A stretch of 64,000 nucleotides of DNA from Firmicutes bacterium UBA5389 (GTDB taxonomy: Bacteria; Bacillota; DTU025): positions 555 through 64,554 of the forward strand of contig DHON01000112.1 in assembly GCA_002409965.1 (NCBI GenBank). The letters run 5' to 3'. This document shows, one piece after another, positions 4,598-44,803 of the stretch. The position numbers and the translations under genes are program-made. The notes under the pieces are model-generated. The model had not been told where the DNA came from and made no database searches. It was given only the letters and a program-made list of their open reading frames with translations. Position 1 is the stretch's first letter. The number at the start of each line of letters is the position of its first letter.

Positions 4598-5068
4598 TCA
4601 TCCCTCCTGTCGCCTATTAGCTATCGTTCCTATGAGGTGCTGCACAGACCGCACGATCATCAGGCAGGCTCCGAACGGAATCGCAGCGTATGCCCAGTAG
4701 ATCGGGATCTCAAGGGCAGGCGAAGTCTGGCCGGTGTCGAACTGGTTGCGCATGATCTGAGCGGCCAGGATGACGACCAGCACGTTGAAAACGATGATTA
4801 TCACATACCTGAGAGCGTCGAGGAACGGACGCCATTTCTTAGGAAGTGCAGAGACGAACGCCTCGACTCCCAGGTGAGATCCTTTCTTCAGTCCGGCCGA
4901 AGCGCCTATGTAAGCCAGCCAGACCATCATGTACCTGGCTGCCTCCTCGCCCCACGTAATCGGGAAGAAGAACACGTAGCGCGCCATGGTTGACACGAAC
5001 ACGAGGATGGTCATCAGCCCTAATAGCACAATTATGGCCCACTCTTCGAAGCGATCCAGAAACCGCAT
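4598..5068 (-). CDS. dctQ: TRAP transporter small permease (DctQ family)
   Basis: About 156 aa with four TM segments. Start set at MRFLDRFEEW (ATG 5068, AGGAGGT RBS). The upstream part of the track ORF is probably non-coding. Confidence 0.75.
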   Translation of the reverse strand: MRFLDRFEEWAIIVLLGLMTILVFVSTMARYVFFFPITWGEEAARYMMVWLAYIGASAGLKKGSHLGVEAFVSALPKKWRPFLDALRYVIIIVFNVLVVILAAQIMRNQFDTGQTSPALEIPIYWAYAAIPFGACLMIVRSVQHLIGTIANRRQEG

Positions 5069-5144
5069 GAGGGGGTACCTCCTTGATTCGATGGGGTCCC
5101 GCCTGCAAAGCAGGCGAAACCCCATATTGGCTACATAGAGAGAA

Positions 5145-6125
5145 CTACTTCCCACGCAGGGCACGGATGGTATCAAGACCGATCTCGGCCTCGAACTGCT
5201 TGTAGACCGGTTCGCACGCCTTCTCGAATGCATCCAGATCCGGCCTGCTAACCTGCATGCCGGCAGCCTTCAGCTCGCTGACCAGGCTATCCTCTAGGTC
5301 CTGACAGTATTTGCGCTCCCAGTCGCGGGCTTCGGTCGCTGCATCCTGTATCGCCTTCTGCTGGTCAGGAGTGAGATTGCTGAAGAACCTCTGCCCGATC
5401 AGCAAAGCCGCAGGAGAGTAGAAGTGGCCTGTCAGGGCCAGATGCTTCTGAACCTCGTAGAACTTGGACGTCTTGATGATGACCAGAGGGTTCTCCTGTC
5501 CGTCTACGGTCTTCTGCTGCAGCGCGGTGAACAGCTCGCCAAAGGGCATTGGCACAGGAGCGGCGCCAAGGGTCTTGAACGTGGCCATGTGCACAGGGTT
5601 CTCCATGAGGCGGATCTTCAGGCCCGCCACGTCAGCCGGCTTCTCAATCGGTCGCCTGCTGTTCGTGAGCATTCGGAAGCCGTTCTCCCAAAAAGCCAGG
5701 GTCTTGATGCCCTTGGGCTCCAAGGATGCCGCCATCTGATTGCCAAGGTCACCGTCAAGAGCCTTGTAGGCACTGGCACGATCCTTCACGATGAAAGGCA
5801 GGTCAAACACGAGGAACTTCTTGGAGAAATTCGCGAGCGGGGCCGTCGACACCAGTGTCGCTTCTAGAGTCCCAAGGGTGACGCCTTCAATGGCATCTCG
5901 CTCGCTGCCCAACTGGGAACTGTGGAAGATCTGCACCTCGATGGCGCCGTTGGTCTTGGCATTGACCAGTTCCGCGAATTTCTCTAGGCCCATCTGATAA
6001 TGGGAGTCGGGAGCCAGAGTGTGGTTCAGACGGATGATCTTCTTCGCTGGCGCACCTACTGCCAGGCCGGCCATGAATACGCACACTATGGCCAAGGTCA
6101 GAGCAAAGCAGAGTGTCCTTCTCAT
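5145..6125 (-). CDS. dctP: TRAP transporter solute-binding protein (DctP family) with signal peptide
   Basis: Signal peptide MRRTLCFALTLAIVCVFMAGLAVGA, then a DctP-like sequence (IRLNHTLAPDSHYQMGLEKFAELVNAKTNGAIEVQIF). AGAGGAGGAAG RBS. Confidence 0.85.
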   Translation of the reverse strand: MRRTLCFALTLAIVCVFMAGLAVGAPAKKIIRLNHTLAPDSHYQMGLEKFAELVNAKTNGAIEVQIFHSSQLGSERDAIEGVTLGTLEATLVSTAPLANFSKKFLVFDLPFIVKDRASAYKALDGDLGNQMAASLEPKGIKTLAFWENGFRMLTNSRRPIEKPADVAGLKIRLMENPVHMATFKTLGAAPVPMPFGELFTALQQKTVDGQENPLVIIKTSKFYEVQKHLALTGHFYSPAALLIGQRFFSNLTPDQQKAIQDAATEARDWERKYCQDLEDSLVSELKAAGMQVSRPDLDAFEKACEPVYKQFEAEIGLDTIRALRGK

Positions 6126-33486: not shown

Positions 33487-35685
33487 TCAATCAAACCGCC
33501 TTAGCCTGAGCGAGTTCGACACCACCGATACAGAACTCGCGGCCATGGCTGCGCCGGCGTATACCGGCGGCATCACGCCGAGGGCGGCCAATGGAATGCC
33601 GATGGCATTGTAGATGAACGCCCAGAAAAGGTTCTGCTTGATGATCCCGAGCGTGGCTCTTGACAGCCTGATCGCGCTGGGCAGTCTCTGCAATCCCCCC
33701 ACTATAGTTATGTCCGCGGCCTCCATCGCGATGTCTGTACCCGTGCTCATGGCGATCCCCACGTCCGCAGTAGCCAGAGCGGGGGCATCGTTGATGCCGT
33801 CTCCTACCATGGCAACGGCCAGGCCGCGGCGCTTCAGCAGCGCTACATGGTCGGCCTTGGCATTGGGCAGTACCTCGGCCATTACATGATCATCGGGCAC
33901 TCCCACCTGGCGCGCGATAGCCGCTGCAGTGCGAGGATTGTCGCCGGTGATCATGTACACCTCGAGCCCCAGTCCGAACAGGTCGGCGACAACCCCGGCG
34001 GATTCCGGGCGGAGTTGATCGGCAATCCCGTACACAGCTGCAATGGCGCCGTCCACCGCCTGGGCAACGGCAGTCTCTCCCCGCTCCTCCATGCGTTCAA
34101 GGGAGCTCACGGCGCTTGCCCCAAGGCTAACCCCGAGTTCCGACATGAAACTGAGCGTTCCCACGGCCACCTGATGACCGTCTACCTGCGCCAACACTCC
34201 CCGACCGGGCACACTGCGGAAGTCCGTCGGCATGGGCACATCCAGCCTCTGTCGAACGGCCTCCTCCACGATCGCCTTGCCCAGTGGGTGCTCCGATCCC
34301 CATTCGGCAGCTGCAGCCAACCTCAGAGCTTCCCTGGGCCCCAACGACAGAACAGCCCTGTAGCCCACCACTGAAGGCATTCCCCGGGTCAGTGTACCCG
34401 TCTTGTCGAGAATCACTGCGTCGACCCGGCTCAGCCTCTCCAGGTGTTCCCCGCCGCGTATGAGCACTCCAAGTTCAGCCCCGCGCCCCGTGGCGACCAT
34501 TATCCCCGTGGGTGTAGCCAGCCCAAGCGCACACGGGCATGCAACCACTAGAACGGAAGCGGCATTCACCAGAGCCTGTGCGACGCCTGCGCCCGCCAGG
34601 CGCCAACCCACGAAAGCAGCCACTGCAATAGCCAGAACTGCCGGGACGAAGTATGAAGCTGCAACATCCGCTAGCCGCTGTATCGGGGCCTTGCTGCCCT
34701 GGGCCTGCTCGACCAAGCGTACTATGTGCGCCAGCGCAGTGTCGGCCCCCACGCGCGTGGCTTGCACCTTGAACATGCCCTGCTGGTTCACTGTTCCCCC
34801 GGCGACCATATCTCCGGGTTCCTTGTCGACAGGGATACTCTCGCCAGTGAGCATAGACTCGTCTATGGATGTGTGGCCCTCGATGATCTCTCCGTCAACG
34901 GGCACGCGCTCGCCGGGCCTGACGACCACCACTTCGCCGGGGGCGACATCCTCGACCGGCACCGCCGCCTCGCTCTCTCCCCGCATAACCGTGGCTGTGC
35001 GCGGGGTCAGCGATGCCAGCTTGCGTATGGCCTCGCTCGCTCTTCCCTTTGCGCCGCGCTCAAGGTTCTTCCCCAGCAGCACCAGGGTGATCACCACTGC
35101 AGCCGCCTCGTAGTGGACCGCGCCTTCCGCAAAGAACGTGTTGACCACGCTCAAAGCGTAGGCAGTGCCAGTGCCCAGAGCCACAAGCACATCCATATTC
35201 GCCCCGCCGTGCGTCAAGGTCCGATAGGCACTGACGTAGAAGCGCGAACCCGGTAACAGCACAACCGGGGTGGCCAGCACAAACCCGATCACAGGGTTCA
35301 TCAGGAACATGAGCGAATGAACTCCGGCGAGCTCCGCCACCATGCCGATGACCATCGGAAGACTGAGAGCCGCGCTCAGGTAGAACATGCTCCAATCTCT
35401 AGTCATGACGGCCTGCCGCATGGCCTCGTCCTCGCGCCGATCCTCCTCGCCCCGGTCGCGGACAAGCTCTTGCGCGCCGTACCCAGCATCCTCCACGATT
35501 CTCCGAATCTGGCCGATGTCGATAACGTCGGGGTCATACAGCACCCGAGCGGTCCCCGATGCCAAGTTTACATTGGCGTCCATAATCCCGGGTTCCTTCT
35601 TGAGCGCGCGCTCGACGCGCGCGGAGCACGCCGCGCACGACATCCCAGCCACCGCCAGGTCCACTGAATGCGTCTCATCTGTCAT
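33487..35685 (-). CDS. copA: Copper-translocating P1B-type ATPase
   Basis: Single N-terminal HMA domain [18 protein letters not shown] ([11 protein letters not shown]), DKTGTLT and GDGINDAP motifs. Start set at ATG 35685 (MTDETHSV) with a GGAGGTG RBS. The 250-codon Arg/His-rich 5' extension in the track is the antisense of the repeat gene and is discarded. Confidence 0.85.
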
Positions 35686-35721
35686 GGGGGTCACCTCCAA
35701 GGCACTCGTCAGCTGCTGCGA

Positions 35722-35744
35722 ATGCCCAGCGTGTAGCTGGGCAT
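35722..35744. promoter_or_regulatory. Perfect 9-5-9 inverted repeat ATGCCCAGC-gtgta-GCTGGGCAT, 37-60 nt upstream of copA. Candidate Cu-responsive operator.
   Basis: Read directly from the sequence. Lies in the 198-bp divergent intergenic region between copA and the repeat-protein gene. Confidence 0.45.
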
Positions 35745-35883
35745 GGCGAAGTAGTTGGTCCGACTCGCGCCTCCGCCAAGAGCGGCAGAGCACGGAAGTG
35801 CCTGCGGCACGAGAACTTGACGGGGACGTCAGCAATATACTGCCATTGAACACGCGAGAACCCACACAACGAGGTGATACCAC

Positions 35884-36504
35884 GTGCTGCCTTCTAACGA
35901 ATTCCTCAGCATGGTGCAGGACGCCTACGGAGACGAGATCGAAGGCGTCAACTCCTACAGCAGGATCGCCCAGGTAGCTCCCACAGAATGCCTGAAACGG
36001 GCGATCCTCGAAATCTGCGGCGACGAGTTGCGGCACGCGTCTTTCTTCGGAACCGTTCTCTGCTGTCTGCCGGTGGAGGCGGTCCAGCCAACTCCGACGC
36101 CGATGCCAGCGCCAATCCCGATGCCTTGTCCGATGCCTCCGCCTGACACGATGTGGCCGCCTGCTCAGCCTGCCCCGGTAGCGCCATGTCCGATGCCATG
36201 GCCGACGCCATGTCCGGGATCGGCAATGCCTGTGCCCACCCAGTACCCCACTCCGATGCCCGCGCCATGTCCGATGCCATGGCCGACGCCGATGCCTTGT
36301 CCTATGCCGTGTCCGATGCCTGCGCCAGTGATGCCGGCCCCGTGTCCGCCCTACTACCCGTATCCGCAGCCTCCGTGCCCTACGATGCCAGGACCGTGCC
36401 CAATGCCGCAAGTACCCGAGTTCCCTGAACCTCCGCCCGCGCCTGCGCCTCATCCGCCCGGCGGACCGTGCCTAGGATGCATACCCTCGCGAACTGAGGA
36501 CTGA
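35884..36504 (+). CDS. Hypothetical protein. N-terminal ferritin/rubrerythrin-like half-motif (E...ExxH: GDEIEG...[12 protein letters not shown]), followed by a roughly 140-aa Pro/Met/Cys-rich tandem-repeat tail (7x CPMP, MPxPCP units).
   Basis: GTG start with a GAGGTGA RBS. In-frame DNA tandem repeats. Strong terminator hairpin 60 nt after the stop. Divergent from copA. Confidence 0.55.
36181..36290 (+). repeat. Intragenic tandem repeat. Exact 29-nt direct repeat GCGCCATGTCCGATGCCATGGCCGACGCC at 36181-36209 and 36262-36290 (81 nt apart, in frame), within a wider array of CCGATGCC-type units (about 36095-36340).
   Basis: Read directly. Encodes [10 protein letters not shown] twice. Confidence 0.8.
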
Positions 36505-36562
36505 CCGTGCACTGACCCGGGCAAGAGCATGATCGCCCCAGTGCCGAGTCCTCCGGACACTC

Positions 36563-36610
36563 GAACCGTGGTCGTCTCTCGTCAGGCGCAACCACGGTTC
36601 AGTCTTTTCC
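36563..36610 (+). terminator. Intrinsic terminator: 10-bp stem GAACCGTGGT/ACCACGGTTC, 18-nt loop, then TCTTTTCC
   Basis: Read directly. Lies between the convergent repeat-protein gene and the PAP2 gene. Confidence 0.55.
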
Positions 36611-36614
36611 AACA

Positions 36615-37223
36615 TTACTCGGTGTCCAGCGCGAACAGGCGTAGCCGGCCCTCGGCAACCCAAGTGCCCACCCAAAGCCCGATACCGGCCCCGGCCACAA
36701 CATCAGAAGGCCAGTGTACGCCGAGTTCAACCCGGCTCAGGCCTACGGCGACCGCAAGCCCGTAGAGTATGGGAGACCAGTCGGGATATCTGTGCGACAA
36801 CACGGTAGCCATGGCGAACGCATTGGCGGTGTGGCCCGACGGCATCGAATGGTAATCGGGCGAAAGATTCGGACCGGTGAACCGCCCGTTCTCGCCGGGC
36901 ACATACGGCCGGGCGCGACCGAAGCCTATCTTGAGCGCCTCCACAACCCCCGCGGCGCCGGCGGTGGCATTGACCAGCATCTCCCCTACAGGCGGGTCGT
37001 ATGCCAGGAATGCCGCGCCGAGCGCGAACGACGCGCCGGCGCCGCCGAGATGGGTTATCACCCGGGCTATACTTGTCCAGCCCGACTCCGGCATCGACCC
37101 TCCTGCCGCCGGCGCAACCGCCGGCCCGGCCACCTGAGCTAAAGGCACGGCGGCAGCCGCCGGAGCCCTGCAAGAAATGCCGACCATAAGCGCAGCCACA
37201 GCCAGAGCAATTGCTTTGCTCAT
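36615..37223 (-). CDS. Secreted PAP2-family (type 2 phosphatidic-acid / undecaprenyl-diphosphate phosphatase-like) phosphatase
   Basis: Signal peptide. PAP2 motifs KxxxxxxRP (KIGFGRARP), PSGH (MPSGHTA) and SRxxxxxHxxxD (SRVELGVHWPSD). Confidence 0.75.
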   Translation of the reverse strand: MSKAIALAVAALMVGISCRAPAAAAVPLAQVAGPAVAPAAGGSMPESGWTSIARVITHLGGAGASFALGAAFLAYDPPVGEMLVNATAGAAGVVEALKIGFGRARPYVPGENGRFTGPNLSPDYHSMPSGHTANAFAMATVLSHRYPDWSPILYGLAVAVGLSRVELGVHWPSDVVAGAGIGLWVGTWVAEGRLRLFALDTE

Positions 37224-42892: not shown

Positions 42893-42906
42893 AGGGAGGC
42901 AACCAC

Positions 42907-43362
42907 GTGCAAGCCGACTGCTTCGACAATGCTCTTCAAAAGCTCCGAAAGCGCGGGTTCAAGTTGACGCCGCAGCGCAGGGCGGTGCTCAGGCTGTTCT
43001 GCTCCGACGATGCTCGACACCTCACGGCTCAGCAAGCTCACGATGCAATCCGAGAGCGGGAACCGAGCATCGGTCTGGTGACTGTGTACCGCTCGCTCGA
43101 GCTGTTCACAAGTGTGGAAATCCTCCACAGGGTCAAGTTCAACGATGGTTTCGACCGGTACGAGCGACACCCGGGCGCCGCAGGTCACCATCACCACCTG
43201 GTATGCGCTGGATGCGGCCAGGTGGTCGAGTTCGGCGACTGCCTGATCAGGTCGATGGAGCAGAAACTGGAGAAGACGAGCGGCTTCTGTATCGAAGGAC
43301 ATTGGCTGGAGCTGATCGGCAGATGCCCCGAGTGTCGCGGACGCGCAAAGGAGGACAACTGA
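42907..43362 (+). CDS. Fur-family metalloregulator (Fur/Zur/Nur-type)
   Basis: LTPQRRAVLRLF...HHHLVCAGCGQVVEF...CPECRG. Start moved to GTG 42907 behind an AGGGAGG RBS. The track start at 42868 lies inside the promoter. Confidence 0.75.
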   Translation: MQADCFDNALQKLRKRGFKLTPQRRAVLRLFCSDDARHLTAQQAHDAIREREPSIGLVTVYRSLELFTSVEILHRVKFNDGFDRYERHPGAAGHHHHLVCAGCGQVVEFGDCLIRSMEQKLEKTSGFCIEGHWLELIGRCPECRGRAKEDN

Positions 43363-43365
43363 TCC

Positions 43366-44094
43366 ATGTCGCATCTTCACATCCCCGACGGCGTGCTCCC
43401 TCTGCCTTGGATTGCAGCCGGGATAGGCCTCACCGCTCTCTTCGTATACCTTGCGCTCGCAGCCCTCAAACGGCATGATCGCGCCAGAGTCGTATCGCGA
43501 ATCGCCACGCTCTCCGCAGTCATGCTACTGGCAATGAGTCTTCCCATACCGCTGCTGGGCTACCATGTGAACCTCACAGTGCTCGCCGGCATACTCGCAG
43601 GTCCGGCAGAGGGGTTCATCGCCGCGTTCGTCACCAACCTGATCCTGGGGTTGATGGCCCACGGCGGCATCACCGTGGTCGGGTTGAATACCCTCGTCAC
43701 AGGGCTGGAGGTCAGCCTTGGCTGGCTTATCTGGAGATCGCTCCGGCGCGCGCTGCGCCGACCATTCGCCGCAGCCGCCGTTTCCACAGTGATAGTCCTC
43801 CTCATATCCACCACAGCTATGCTTGGCATCGTGGCTGGAACACAGATCAACCCGGACCTCGCGTTGCACCGGCACGATCACTCGGAGCATGCAGATCACT
43901 CGGAGCATGCAGACAACGCGGACCACGCAGATGATACAGATCACGTTGGATCCCTCAAGGCTTTCGCCGCGGTCGTCTATGCTACAGGGGCGGTGGGGTG
44001 GGCCATCGAGGCCCTCGTGGTCGGGTCGGTGACGGAGTTCATCGCGAAATCCAGGCCCGACATGCTGAGTCCAAGCCCCGACAGGGAGGCTTGA
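43366..44094 (+). CDS. cbiM: ECF-transporter substrate-capture component CbiM/NikM family (Ni/Co) with a His-rich segment
   Basis: N-terminal (MS)HLHIPDG motif of CbiM/NikM. Multiple TM helices. C-terminal HRHDHSEHADHSEHADNADHADDTDH. Confidence 0.7.
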   Translation: MSHLHIPDGVLPLPWIAAGIGLTALFVYLALAALKRHDRARVVSRIATLSAVMLLAMSLPIPLLGYHVNLTVLAGILAGPAEGFIAAFVTNLILGLMAHGGITVVGLNTLVTGLEVSLGWLIWRSLRRALRRPFAAAAVSTVIVLLISTTAMLGIVAGTQINPDLALHRHDHSEHADHSEHADNADHADDTDHVGSLKAFAAVVYATGAVGWAIEALVVGSVTEFIAKSRPDMLSPSPDREA

Positions 44095-44098
44095 GCTG

Positions 44099-44803
44099 GT
44101 GGATGTGCAGTTCGTCGACGAACTCGCGGCCAATGGCCGCACGCCGTTGCACGCCGCGCTGCCCTGGGTGAAGATATCGGCTTCCGCCGCCTTGCTCGCG
44201 GCATCGATAGCCGCGAGCACGCCTGTGGCTGCCGGTGCGGCGGCAGTCGCCGTGGTCGTCTTCGCATCGGCATCCCTTGGCCAACTGCGCTACACAGTGA
44301 CGATGGCGCTCTACCCGGTGTTCTTCGCGAGCATTTTCGCCCTGGGCTCGGTTCAGCGGAGCCCGCTGTTCGCCCTGACAATAGTGGTCAAGGCCTTCTC
44401 GGCCGGCCTGGTCGCCTCCACTCTGATTACCACCACGCCCTTTGTCGACATCTTCGCCGGCGTCTCCCGGGCGATGCCGGCGATAGTCTCTGATGCGCTT
44501 TTCATGGGGTACAGGTCTTTCTTCATCCTCATCAACGAACTGCAGAATCTGCTCCGAGCTGTGCGGTTGCGCGGCGGAGCGGGGCGCGGGCTCGCGCAGC
44601 AGTTGCGCACATACGGCCAGGTCCTGGGCGTGGTGATCTTGCATTCGGCGGACATGACGGAACGCATGTACCGGGTCATGATAGTCCGGGGATACTCGCA
44701 GCGAATCGAGTCGGCGCGCGAATGGCCTCCGCCCCGCACCTTCGACTACCTGCTGATCGCGTACGCCGGGGCCGTGCTCGCTCTCATCCTGACACTGAAG
44801 TAA
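44099..44803 (+). CDS. cbiQ: ECF-transporter transmembrane (T) component, CbiQ family
   Basis: About 234-aa membrane protein between cbiM and cbiO, with the C-terminal arginine-containing helices typical of the family. Confidence 0.65.
   Translation: MDVQFVDELAANGRTPLHAALPWVKISASAALLAASIAASTPVAAGAAAVAVVVFASASLGQLRYTVTMALYPVFFASIFALGSVQRSPLFALTIVVKAFSAGLVASTLITTTPFVDIFAGVSRAMPAIVSDALFMGYRSFFILINELQNLLRAVRLRGGAGRGLAQQLRTYGQVLGVVILHSADMTERMYRVMIVRGYSQRIESAREWPPPRTFDYLLIAYAGAVLALILTLK

Follow-up and report, generated by a model that had tools for sequence, protein, structure and literature searches.

A half-ferritin protein with a disordered Met/Cys-rich tail, encoded back-to-back with a copper-chaperone or copper-ATPase gene in uncultured Bacillota

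The locus described here lies in a 64,000-nucleotide stretch of Firmicutes bacterium UBA5389 (GenBank assembly GCA_002409965.1, contig DHON01000112.1, positions 555 to 64,554 of the forward strand), which we call the window and whose own coordinates are used throughout. An unnamed gene on its plus strand (35884..36504, stop codon included) encodes a protein of 206 amino acids, about 22 kDa in size, composed of a short N-terminal domain with the ligand set of a half-ferritin and a long tail rich in proline, methionine and cysteine. The gene starts with GTG, 6 nt downstream of a ribosome-binding site, GAGGTGA (35871-35877, plus strand), at which GAGGTGAT is invariant across all loci of the family. 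On the minus strand, divergent from the unnamed gene, lies copA (33487..35685), whose 732-aa product is a P1B-type Cu(I) ATPase that has the Pfam domains HMA, E1-E2_ATPase and Hydrolase and the motifs GMSCAAC and CPC. A called PAP2 phosphatase gene (36615..37223), on the strand opposite to the unnamed gene, converges on it from the other side. A preliminary description of this DNA, made without database searches, had given the reading frame, its GTG start and its ribosome-binding site just as they stand here; the end coordinate that it used, 36610, takes in a downstream hairpin, the reading frame itself stopping at 36504.

The same DNA can be read on the other strand, where a 988-aa open reading frame (ORF; 33487..36453, minus strand) has an Arg/His-rich head that overlaps the gene and is joined to copA. 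This frame is an artefact of longest-ORF listing, as had been proposed, and true copA starts at 35685. The accompanying warning that the gene is easily mis-annotated did not hold up, since the identical 206-aa protein has already been called on six public contigs together with the 732-aa copA, even if public records give it as 'hypothetical protein' or without a name and its precomputed Pfam annotation reads '-'. The alternative, by which the plus-strand frame would itself be an ORF artefact or GC-rich repeat DNA without coding function, could appeal to frame-shifted or truncated tails, which do exist: L009 compared with L043 and P0004 compared with L033 show one frameshift each, the disrupted copy of L028 sits on a contig of 0.34x coverage, and the tail of L003 is cut short. 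Disrupted copies are, however, exceptions, most of them located where contigs are short or thinly covered. The frame is retained in about 25 distinct relatives, drawn from 32 metagenome loci plus further contigs, and full-length orthologues of 216 and 213 aa are present in two Bacillota metagenome-assembled genomes. Indels among intact copies are all multiples of three, as is every indel seen when the DNA of the window gene is aligned to that of L001 and L002. The ratio of nonsynonymous to synonymous substitution rates (dN/dS; Nei-Gojobori method, close relatives) is 0.21-0.37 for the N-terminal domain and 0.18-0.29 for the tail, staying below 0.4 wherever dS can be estimated and far under 1. 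Moreover, the ribosome-binding site and start codon are invariant, the protein motifs are kept at 31-58% overall identity, and the minus-strand frame over the gene is not conserved among relatives. The substitution ratios, the in-frame indels and the conserved motifs effectively refute the artefact reading and indicate that the gene is real, protein-coding and under purifying selection on the plus-strand frame, in agreement with what the preliminary description supposed.

The family is rare, amounting to about 10 clusters among 5.8 billion proteins, and its members are 194-263 aa long in total. Its samples come from anaerobic digesters and fermentations, under record titles that name Bacillota or Clostridia, and the gene is confined to a narrow group of uncultured spore-forming Bacillota. 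Literature searches returned no described family of such architecture, and no curated family spans the whole protein, so the initial failure to put a name to it was justified. Nor did the libraries and papers searched contain any description of this architecture or of its linkage to copZ/copA.

Residues 1-62 (35884..36069, plus strand) are assigned to a two-helix half-ferritin domain of the rubrerythrin/EncFtn-like type on the combined basis of AlphaFold2 modeling, Foldseek, HMMER and the invariance of the putative ligands. In the model, computed from an alignment of eight sequences, the helices extend over residues 5-30 and 35-61 with a predicted local distance difference test score (pLDDT) of 93-98. 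When this hairpin was compared with the PDB by Foldseek, encapsulated ferritins (EncFtn, EncB and EncC) ranked first; the top matches were P. furiosus PFC_05175, M. xanthus EncB/EncC, and structures from H. ochraceum, R. rubrum (Rru_A0973) and N. europaea (NE0167). Superposition on EncB reached a TM-score of up to 0.85 with a root-mean-square deviation of 0.7-0.9 Å over 52-53 residues, and the Foldseek E-values of only 0.036-1 are modest because the hairpin is short, about 60 residues. A profile of 12 family sequences searched against the PDB retrieved designed di-iron proteins, bacterioferritin and EncFtn with E-values of 1.4e-5 to 3e-4. The Pfam family Rubrerythrin (PF02915) matches all 18 family members tested at E <= 1 (best E-value 5.9e-6) and is the only Pfam family common to them. 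The window protein itself scores 12.8 bits against it (16.1 for the domain alone) with a gathering cut-off of 22.8, and another member, P0007, reaches 27.1 bits and thus exceeds that cut-off. These profile matches to Pfam and to the PDB bear out the ferritin-like signature (GDEIEG...E...ExxH) that had been picked out by eye.

The correspondence extends to the individual ligands. When aligned by HMMER to the EncFtn domain of P. furiosus (5n5e), E18, Y25, E48 and H51 fall on residues 32, 39, 62 and 65, and in R. rubrum EncFtn the ferroxidase-centre ligands, supplied by two chains, are E32, Y39, E62 and H65 (He et al. 2016); the two sets were matched by residue number, on the assumption that the P. 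furiosus and R. rubrum proteins share their numbering. The ligand spacing in EncFtn and in the window protein is identical (E, then Y at +7, E at +30 and H at +33), and all four residues are invariant in 18 of 18 diverged members, down to 32% overall identity. The other invariant residues of the domain in this set are D17, D47, R27, R50, A29-Q30 and A32-P33. D17 and E20 align to 5n5e positions 31 and 34, which are Ala and Asp in the P. furiosus chain and have the same numbers as the entry-site residues Glu31 and Glu34 of R. rubrum EncFtn (He et al. 2016); E20 is not conserved in the family. The cysteines of the helical domain (C36, C45, C60 and C61) are only 57-61% conserved. The domain is acidic, with nine D/E residues against four K/R and an isoelectric point (pI) of 4.4. 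We also considered a divergently encoded regulator of copZ/copA, of the kind represented by the four-helix dimer of CsoR, and rejected it in view of the acidic domain, the di-iron ligands and the lack of CsoR among the structural matches.

Several observations indicate that the domain is only part of a complete metal-binding fold. Its match to PF02915 covers profile positions 4-50 of 137, with a single hairpin predicted. Among 1.84 billion representatives scanned exhaustively with HMMER, 72 matched, mostly four-helix proteins of 130-160 aa, and these four-helix relatives match the N-terminal query twice, with one match per half; a profile of the domain run against a large protein collection found just four proteins. 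That the four-helix relatives match the domain twice while the domain has a single ligand set implies a half-ferritin that needs a second copy, and both the structural model and the conserved residues identify it as half of a four-helix di-metal site of the ferritin type. With one E...Y...ExxH set per chain, a di-iron site would arise only at a dimer interface. By analogy with EncFtn, the head may dimerize or oligomerize around iron.

The likeness to EncFtn (PF22277, TIGR04535), also a two-helix half-ferritin with one E...Y...ExxH set, raises the possibility that the protein is a true EncFtn with a very long linker and a novel targeting peptide, and thus encapsulin cargo. Indeed, its closest solved folds and NCBIfam models are those of EncFtn and EncB. 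The model scores are nevertheless far too low, 11.4-15.1 bits for EncB_fam against a cut-off of 90 and 13.2 bits for TIGR04535 against 125, and Pfam EncFtn-like matches just 2 of 18 members, with an E-value of 0.028 or weaker. EncFtn carries a C-terminal targeting peptide of the GSLK type; at that end the window protein instead has a CxxC motif and acidic residues, with no localization sequence of the Gly-Ser-Leu-Lys type. EncFtn adjoins an encapsulin shell gene, whereas no Pfam family of the shell type was found among the called genes within ±10 kb, either on the window's contigs or in L052, the most divergent locus. The window protein further differs in having no predicted third helix, in its Met/Cys/Pro tail of about 145 residues and in its copper-chaperone gene partner. 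We consider the encapsulin cargo explanation extremely improbable.

The hairpin is also found outside the family. In other Bacillota it is fused N-terminally to a CotJC-like Mn-catalase domain (L045, 1661-2410, and P0013). In another lineage it occurs as a tail-less 64-aa domain beside a FolP-FolB-HPPK cluster (L046-L048; L046 gene at 5001-5195). There, a TATAAT box is followed by a large imperfect palindrome, GACACCGGCACATATGCCGATGTC, and the three contigs, which are independent, each end 110-160 nt past the gene.

The rest of the protein, residues 63-206 (36070..36501, plus strand), is predicted from the AlphaFold2 model and from composition to be a disordered (X-Pro)n tail. It has zero predicted secondary structure, and its block-mean pLDDT is 51-79, mostly 51-67. 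Proline accounts for 43.6% of its residues, methionine for 10% and cysteine for 7.9%, in a host genome of 62% GC; 42 of the 61 prolines are followed by another at the second position, which produces an X-Pro repeat. The preliminary description viewed this region as an in-frame DNA tandem repeat. The spacings of the repeats are indeed all multiples of three and the long unit it pointed out does occur twice; the DNA, on the other hand, is a degenerate low-complexity sequence with two short tandem arrays rather than one clean array, CPMP is present six times rather than seven, and CLGC lies eight residues before the end. Repeat detection placed the arrays at 36182..36216 (period 12, 2.9 copies) and 36264..36320 (periods 12 and 30), both on the plus strand, with the number of units in the second varying between strains. 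Near-identical strains carry different numbers of PMPCPM-type units, without loss of frame; for example, L018/L019/L024 (215 versus 227 aa) and L029/L030 (230 versus 236 aa) differ by whole units of this type. Such differences resemble in-frame repeat slippage, like that of variable-number tandem repeats.

Embedded in this low-complexity tail are motifs conserved family-wide: MWPPAQP, PCPG (Cys in 91%), CPP(Y/W)Y (Cys in 96%), a motif containing VPEFPE, and a C-terminal CxxC. In the window protein, CPPYY occupies C154-Y158 (36343..36357), and the VPEFPE core, residues 177-182 (36412..36429), belongs to a longer motif that is at least 90% identical in 23 members. The CxxC, C196-L-G-C199 (36469..36480), is followed by an acidic end; both of its cysteines are invariant, in 18 of 18 and in 23 of 23 members, and there is one such pair per chain. 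All three motifs are on the plus strand. Conservation is at least 83% for C110, C139 and C154 and complete for C196 and C199. AlphaFold2 confidence climbs to 72-79 across residues 171-190, around VPEFPE, and the model hints that this motif takes up a defined conformation or packs against the two-helix hairpin.

Of the 11 tail cysteines, whose number ranges from 5 to 13 across the family, nine precede proline, mostly as C-P-M, and 'CP' is the usual context of cysteine in distant members too. Cys-Pro motifs bind heme, and bacterioferritin binds heme through methionine. The protein could accordingly be seen as a heme-binding or heme-sensing protein, with Cys-Pro pairs acting as heme-regulatory motifs and methionine as an axial ligand, as in bacterioferritin. 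This we regard as very improbable: with 43% proline at alternate positions, Cys-Pro pairs are expected from composition, and there are no heme genes among the genes near the window locus or L052.

The protein does not appear to be exported. It has no signal peptide or transmembrane segment, its Kyte-Doolittle hydropathy averages at most 1.24 over any 19 residues, and its pI is 4.3; helix 1 begins at residue 5, and the ORF has no room to extend upstream. The protein is thus predicted to be cytoplasmic, contrary to the periplasmic or extracytoplasmic location first suggested. A cell-wall-spanning Pro-rich protein was likewise rejected, there being no signal peptide and, by inspection, no sorting motif.

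The combination of di-iron ligands with a cysteine motif at the end of the chain is reminiscent of rubrerythrin, with which the window protein shares the di-iron carboxylate motif and in which C-terminal Cys motifs are also present in the classic form. One may envisage a 'split rubrerythrin', a redox protein in which a homodimer builds the di-iron site, the two CxxC pairs together form a rubredoxin-like Fe(Cys)4 or Zn(Cys)4 centre and the Met-rich tail serves as an oxidant sink, the function being iron or peroxide detoxification in an anaerobe rather than copper handling. PF02915 being the sole Pfam family that matches all members, and the invariant residues being the di-iron ligands plus one CxxC, would suit this well, as would the glycine that follows the CxxC in several members (CSGCG, CPSCG, CPTCG), reminiscent of a rubredoxin knuckle, and the origin of the source organisms in anaerobic digesters and fermenters. 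Yet rubrerythrin is a full four-helix bundle with two E...ExxH halves, whereas the window protein has half a bundle per chain; the rubredoxin domain has two CxxC pairs, whereas here a single one per chain lies remote behind a disordered spacer. That Pro-rich spacer, of about 135 residues, is unlike any rubrerythrin and poorly suited to electron transfer. Furthermore, one species truncates the protein ahead of the CxxC, and the pairing with an HMA gene (see below) would go unexplained. On balance, the split rubrerythrin seems to us decidedly unlikely. The protein belongs to the ferritin-like/rubrerythrin superfamily; with its half bundle and single CxxC it is not a rubrerythrin, nor is it a Csp or a metallothionein.

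The gene's surroundings provide the link with copper. In every locus with upstream flank, the divergent upstream neighbor is an HMA gene, which makes the link to a copper locus stronger than originally claimed. Three kinds of partner occur: a copA whose product includes a fused HMA domain (the window and L004), a copZ-like gene with copA behind it (L009 and L043), and a lone CopZ of 72-90 aa with no adjoining ATPase (L003, L007 and L052). Every one of them carries GM(S/T)CxxC, which in the lone CopZ-like partners reads GMSCGHC or GMSCHHC (L003, 7644-7916; L007, 626-844; L052, 9676-9900). The occurrence of CopZ-only partners in three sub-lineages implies that the constant partner is the HMA module and not the pump. 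Most loci share PAP2-BirA-FolB-FolP-FTCD downstream and a methylmalonyl-CoA mutase gene beyond copA. L052, at 32% identity the most divergent, lacks copA and the mutase gene as well as PAP2 and BirA, and the HMA gene and the half-ferritin/tail gene are still back-to-back there, 100 nt apart. All family loci come from one lineage with conserved gene order, so counts of HMA adjacency are not independent; within this lineage, the pairing with an HMA gene is obligate. About 7 kb downstream of the gene (window ~42900-44200), a gene for a Fur-family regulator is followed by CbiM/CbiQ/ABC genes for a cobalt or nickel transporter of the energy-coupling factor type, a block kept in several related loci (for example, L010, 17081-18211).

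Between the divergent genes lies a conserved dyad, GTGCC-TGC-GGCAC (35798..35810), at a fixed distance 5' of a putative -10 element. The dyad is perfect in the window and imperfect in the family consensus, GTGmC-N3-GkCAC; in the low-GC locus L042/L052, the same register is occupied by GTTAC-TTA-GTCAC. The copA leader contains a different dyad, ATGCCCAGC-GTGTA-GCTGGGCAT (35722..35744), perfect and with arms of 9 bp. The preliminary description had based a regulatory argument on it. The dyad exists as stated, but it is restricted to the window's near-identical relatives and missing in L001 and L002, where CopA is 82-88% identical, and we therefore rejected it as an operator. The dyad that is conserved is the one at 35798-35810.

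Next to the conserved dyad is a promoter-like module on the plus strand, GAAC-17 nt-AATATACT (35813..35841; GAAC at 35813-35816, AATATACT at 35834-35841), directly followed by GCCAyTG. All high-GC loci of the family have it with identical sequence and spacing; in L042/L052, AATGTC and CATATATT are found with the spacing unchanged. The TATACT hexamer (35836-35841) is a plausible -10 element, and the sole conserved -35-like element is GAAC, 19 nt 5' of TATACT. A generic sigma-70 promoter scan did not call the conserved site. Sigma-K promoters have AC at -35 and CATATAAT at -10, and the module, written as AC, 17 nt, xATATAxT, agrees with AC-N17-CATATAAT in the AC and in six of eight positions, the comparison being with the published pattern. 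In its sequence, the module looks more like a mother-cell (sigma-K/E) sporulation promoter than a sigma-70 promoter. In the window, there are no other copies of the dyad or of the promoter pattern, one further xATATAxT lying inside a minus-strand gene, and an Rfam scan of the whole window gave no riboswitch or leader match.

At the other end, a hairpin separates the unnamed gene from the convergent PAP2 gene (36563..36600, plus strand; 10-bp stem, 36563-36572/36591-36600). The stem extends inward; across relatives, its outer part is invariant and its inner part shows compensatory changes, and a folding energy of -44.7 kcal/mol (z = -3.65) was computed for the 110-nt region. The 10-bp-stem terminator of the preliminary description is thus present and conserved as a stem, while its U-tract is weak and a terminator scan made no call; the hairpin is probably a terminator. 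The invariance of the outer stem may point to a role beyond this.

The promoter module, together with a precedent in B. subtilis, makes somewhat more plausible a rival that the preliminary description had already raised, namely that the protein is a spore-coat or otherwise sporulation-specific structural or protective protein, with a rubrerythrin-type head like that of B. subtilis YhjR or of the Mn catalase CotJC and a Pro/Cys/Tyr tail cross-linked into the coat, and with its copper neighbor reflecting no more than inherited gene order. In addition to a promoter that is not sigma-70-like and fits the mother-cell pattern AC-17 nt-xATATAxT, with CATATATT at the -10 position of the most divergent locus, this locus (L052) contains SpoIIE, so its host lineage sporulates. 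As for the precedent, B. subtilis YhjR is an inner-coat protein with a Rubrerythrin domain, co-transcribed with Csp3/YhjQ under sigma-K; we liken it to the window protein by its published description. The joining of the half-domain, in L045 and P0013, to a Mn catalase of the CotJC kind, the conserved CPPYY(P)YP together with many cysteines, tyrosine and cysteine being typical cross-linking residues, and the strain-variable repeat number all point in the same direction. Variable repeat number is common in surface and coat proteins. Conversely, the promoter match comprises six of eight positions and a two-base -35 element, lacks the leading C and occurs as a single copy in the window. The spore interpretation also leaves unexplained both the persistence of the HMA pairing through turnover of the other neighbors and the invariant terminal CxxC. 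Overall, we regard it as a credible yet doubtful explanation. It does not exclude a role in copper handling: B. subtilis Csp3 feeds copper to CotA.

The reading that we favor, tentatively and with somewhat less than even confidence, is that the protein is a cytoplasmic Cu(I) buffer or hand-off partner of CopZ/CopA. According to this reading, two copies of the hairpin (residues 5-61) would pair so that each chain contributes its E18, Y25, E48 and H51 to a symmetric site, the hairpin domain doubling as an oligomerization core; as regards the head, both dimerization and the metal bound are suggested by the analogy with EncFtn. The disordered tails would offer Met thioethers and Cys thiolates to a soft metal, most likely Cu(I), and the terminal CxxC would trade Cu(I) with the MxCxxC of the HMA protein encoded back-to-back with it, be it CopZ or the CopA N-terminus. 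The two divergent genes would probably be co-regulated through the dyad and promoter module between them, and the shape of the promoter suggests expression in the sporulating mother cell. We infer copper binding, copper exchange and regulation alike from these features. In yeast Ctr1 and CCS, terminal Cys motifs carried by flexible tails are known to pass Cu(I) on to partner proteins.

Known copper-binding proteins provide partial parallels. Like the window protein, Csp3/YhjQ (DUF326) and bacterial metallothioneins are cytoplasmic and present many thiolates to Cu(I), and Csp3 has links to both copper efflux and sporulation. In Csp proteins, however, Cu(I) is held inside a folded, Cys-lined four-helix bundle, whereas here the Cys and Met residues are in a disordered Pro-rich tail, and there was no DUF326/Csp Pfam match for the window protein or the 18 members. 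Unlike metallothioneins, the window protein has 8% Cys and contains aromatic residues. Dense methionines acting as flexible thioether ligands are characteristic of Met-rich Cu(I)/Ag(I) segments, such as the Mets motifs of Ctr1, CusF, PcoE/SilE and the CueO insert. Those segments are extracytoplasmic and mostly without Cys, while the window protein has no export signal and its Cys are mixed with Met in an X-Pro repeat. A precedent exists in B. subtilis, where Csp3, a Cys-rich Cu(I) store that supplies copper to the coat laccase CotA, and YhjR are co-transcribed under sigma-K, which makes the copper and spore readings compatible. By this analogy, the window protein looks like the ingredients of YhjR and Csp3 in one chain.

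A number of observations weigh against the copper reading. The invariant ligands of the N-terminal domain are of the hard-metal (Fe/Mn) type, not copper ligands. The density of cysteines in the tail is lineage-specific, with 11-13 in the window's clade and 5-6 elsewhere. One species (L003, 8001-8660) has a reproducible stop ahead of the CxxC, after EPPPTS; past this stop the frame continues as IVGPSRNCPTCGG, with a remnant CPTCGG, so that the CxxC is cut off, and the shortened form of 200 aa is found on four independent contigs (P0076). Adjacency to the HMA gene could be inherited synteny instead of functional coupling, because there is a single lineage and FolB-FolP are likewise kept, L052 included. 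Close relatives of the N-terminal domain that lack the tail lie in contexts unrelated to copper, and its four-helix relatives are in unrelated contexts as well. To our knowledge, the conserved dyad fits no copper-sensor operator. Finally, CsoR, CopY and CueR were absent from the window by tblastn, a weak negative, given that the query sequences were unverified.

A more elaborate version of the copper reading would put the family in a class of its own among cytosolic copper buffers or metallochaperones, in which an iron-dependent EncFtn-like oligomer (a dimer or an annular decamer) serves as a hub, thiolate/thioether tails bind copper, the CxxC docks with CopZ/CopA, and expression in the mother cell couples iron or oxidant status to copper supply or detoxification. 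Taken as a whole, we think this version unlikely.

Half-ferritins with a metal site at the dimer interface have so far been characterized mainly as encapsulin cargo. In the present family, a module of this kind is used outside encapsulins, as part of a free cytoplasmic protein with a disordered, ligand-rich tail, and its gene is locked to that of a copper chaperone; the protein is probably a novel type of metal handler. If the copper role is true, the family would represent a third bacterial cytosolic Cu(I) architecture, beside HMA chaperones and the folded Csp bundles, and would bear on the debate over cytosolic copper pools in bacteria. If instead the coat role is true, it would be a new rubrerythrin-type coat component of poorly known, uncultured anaerobic-digester Bacillota. 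Either way, the protein offers a small, 22-kDa test case that should be easy to express, with E18, E48, H51, C196 and C199 as mutational targets.

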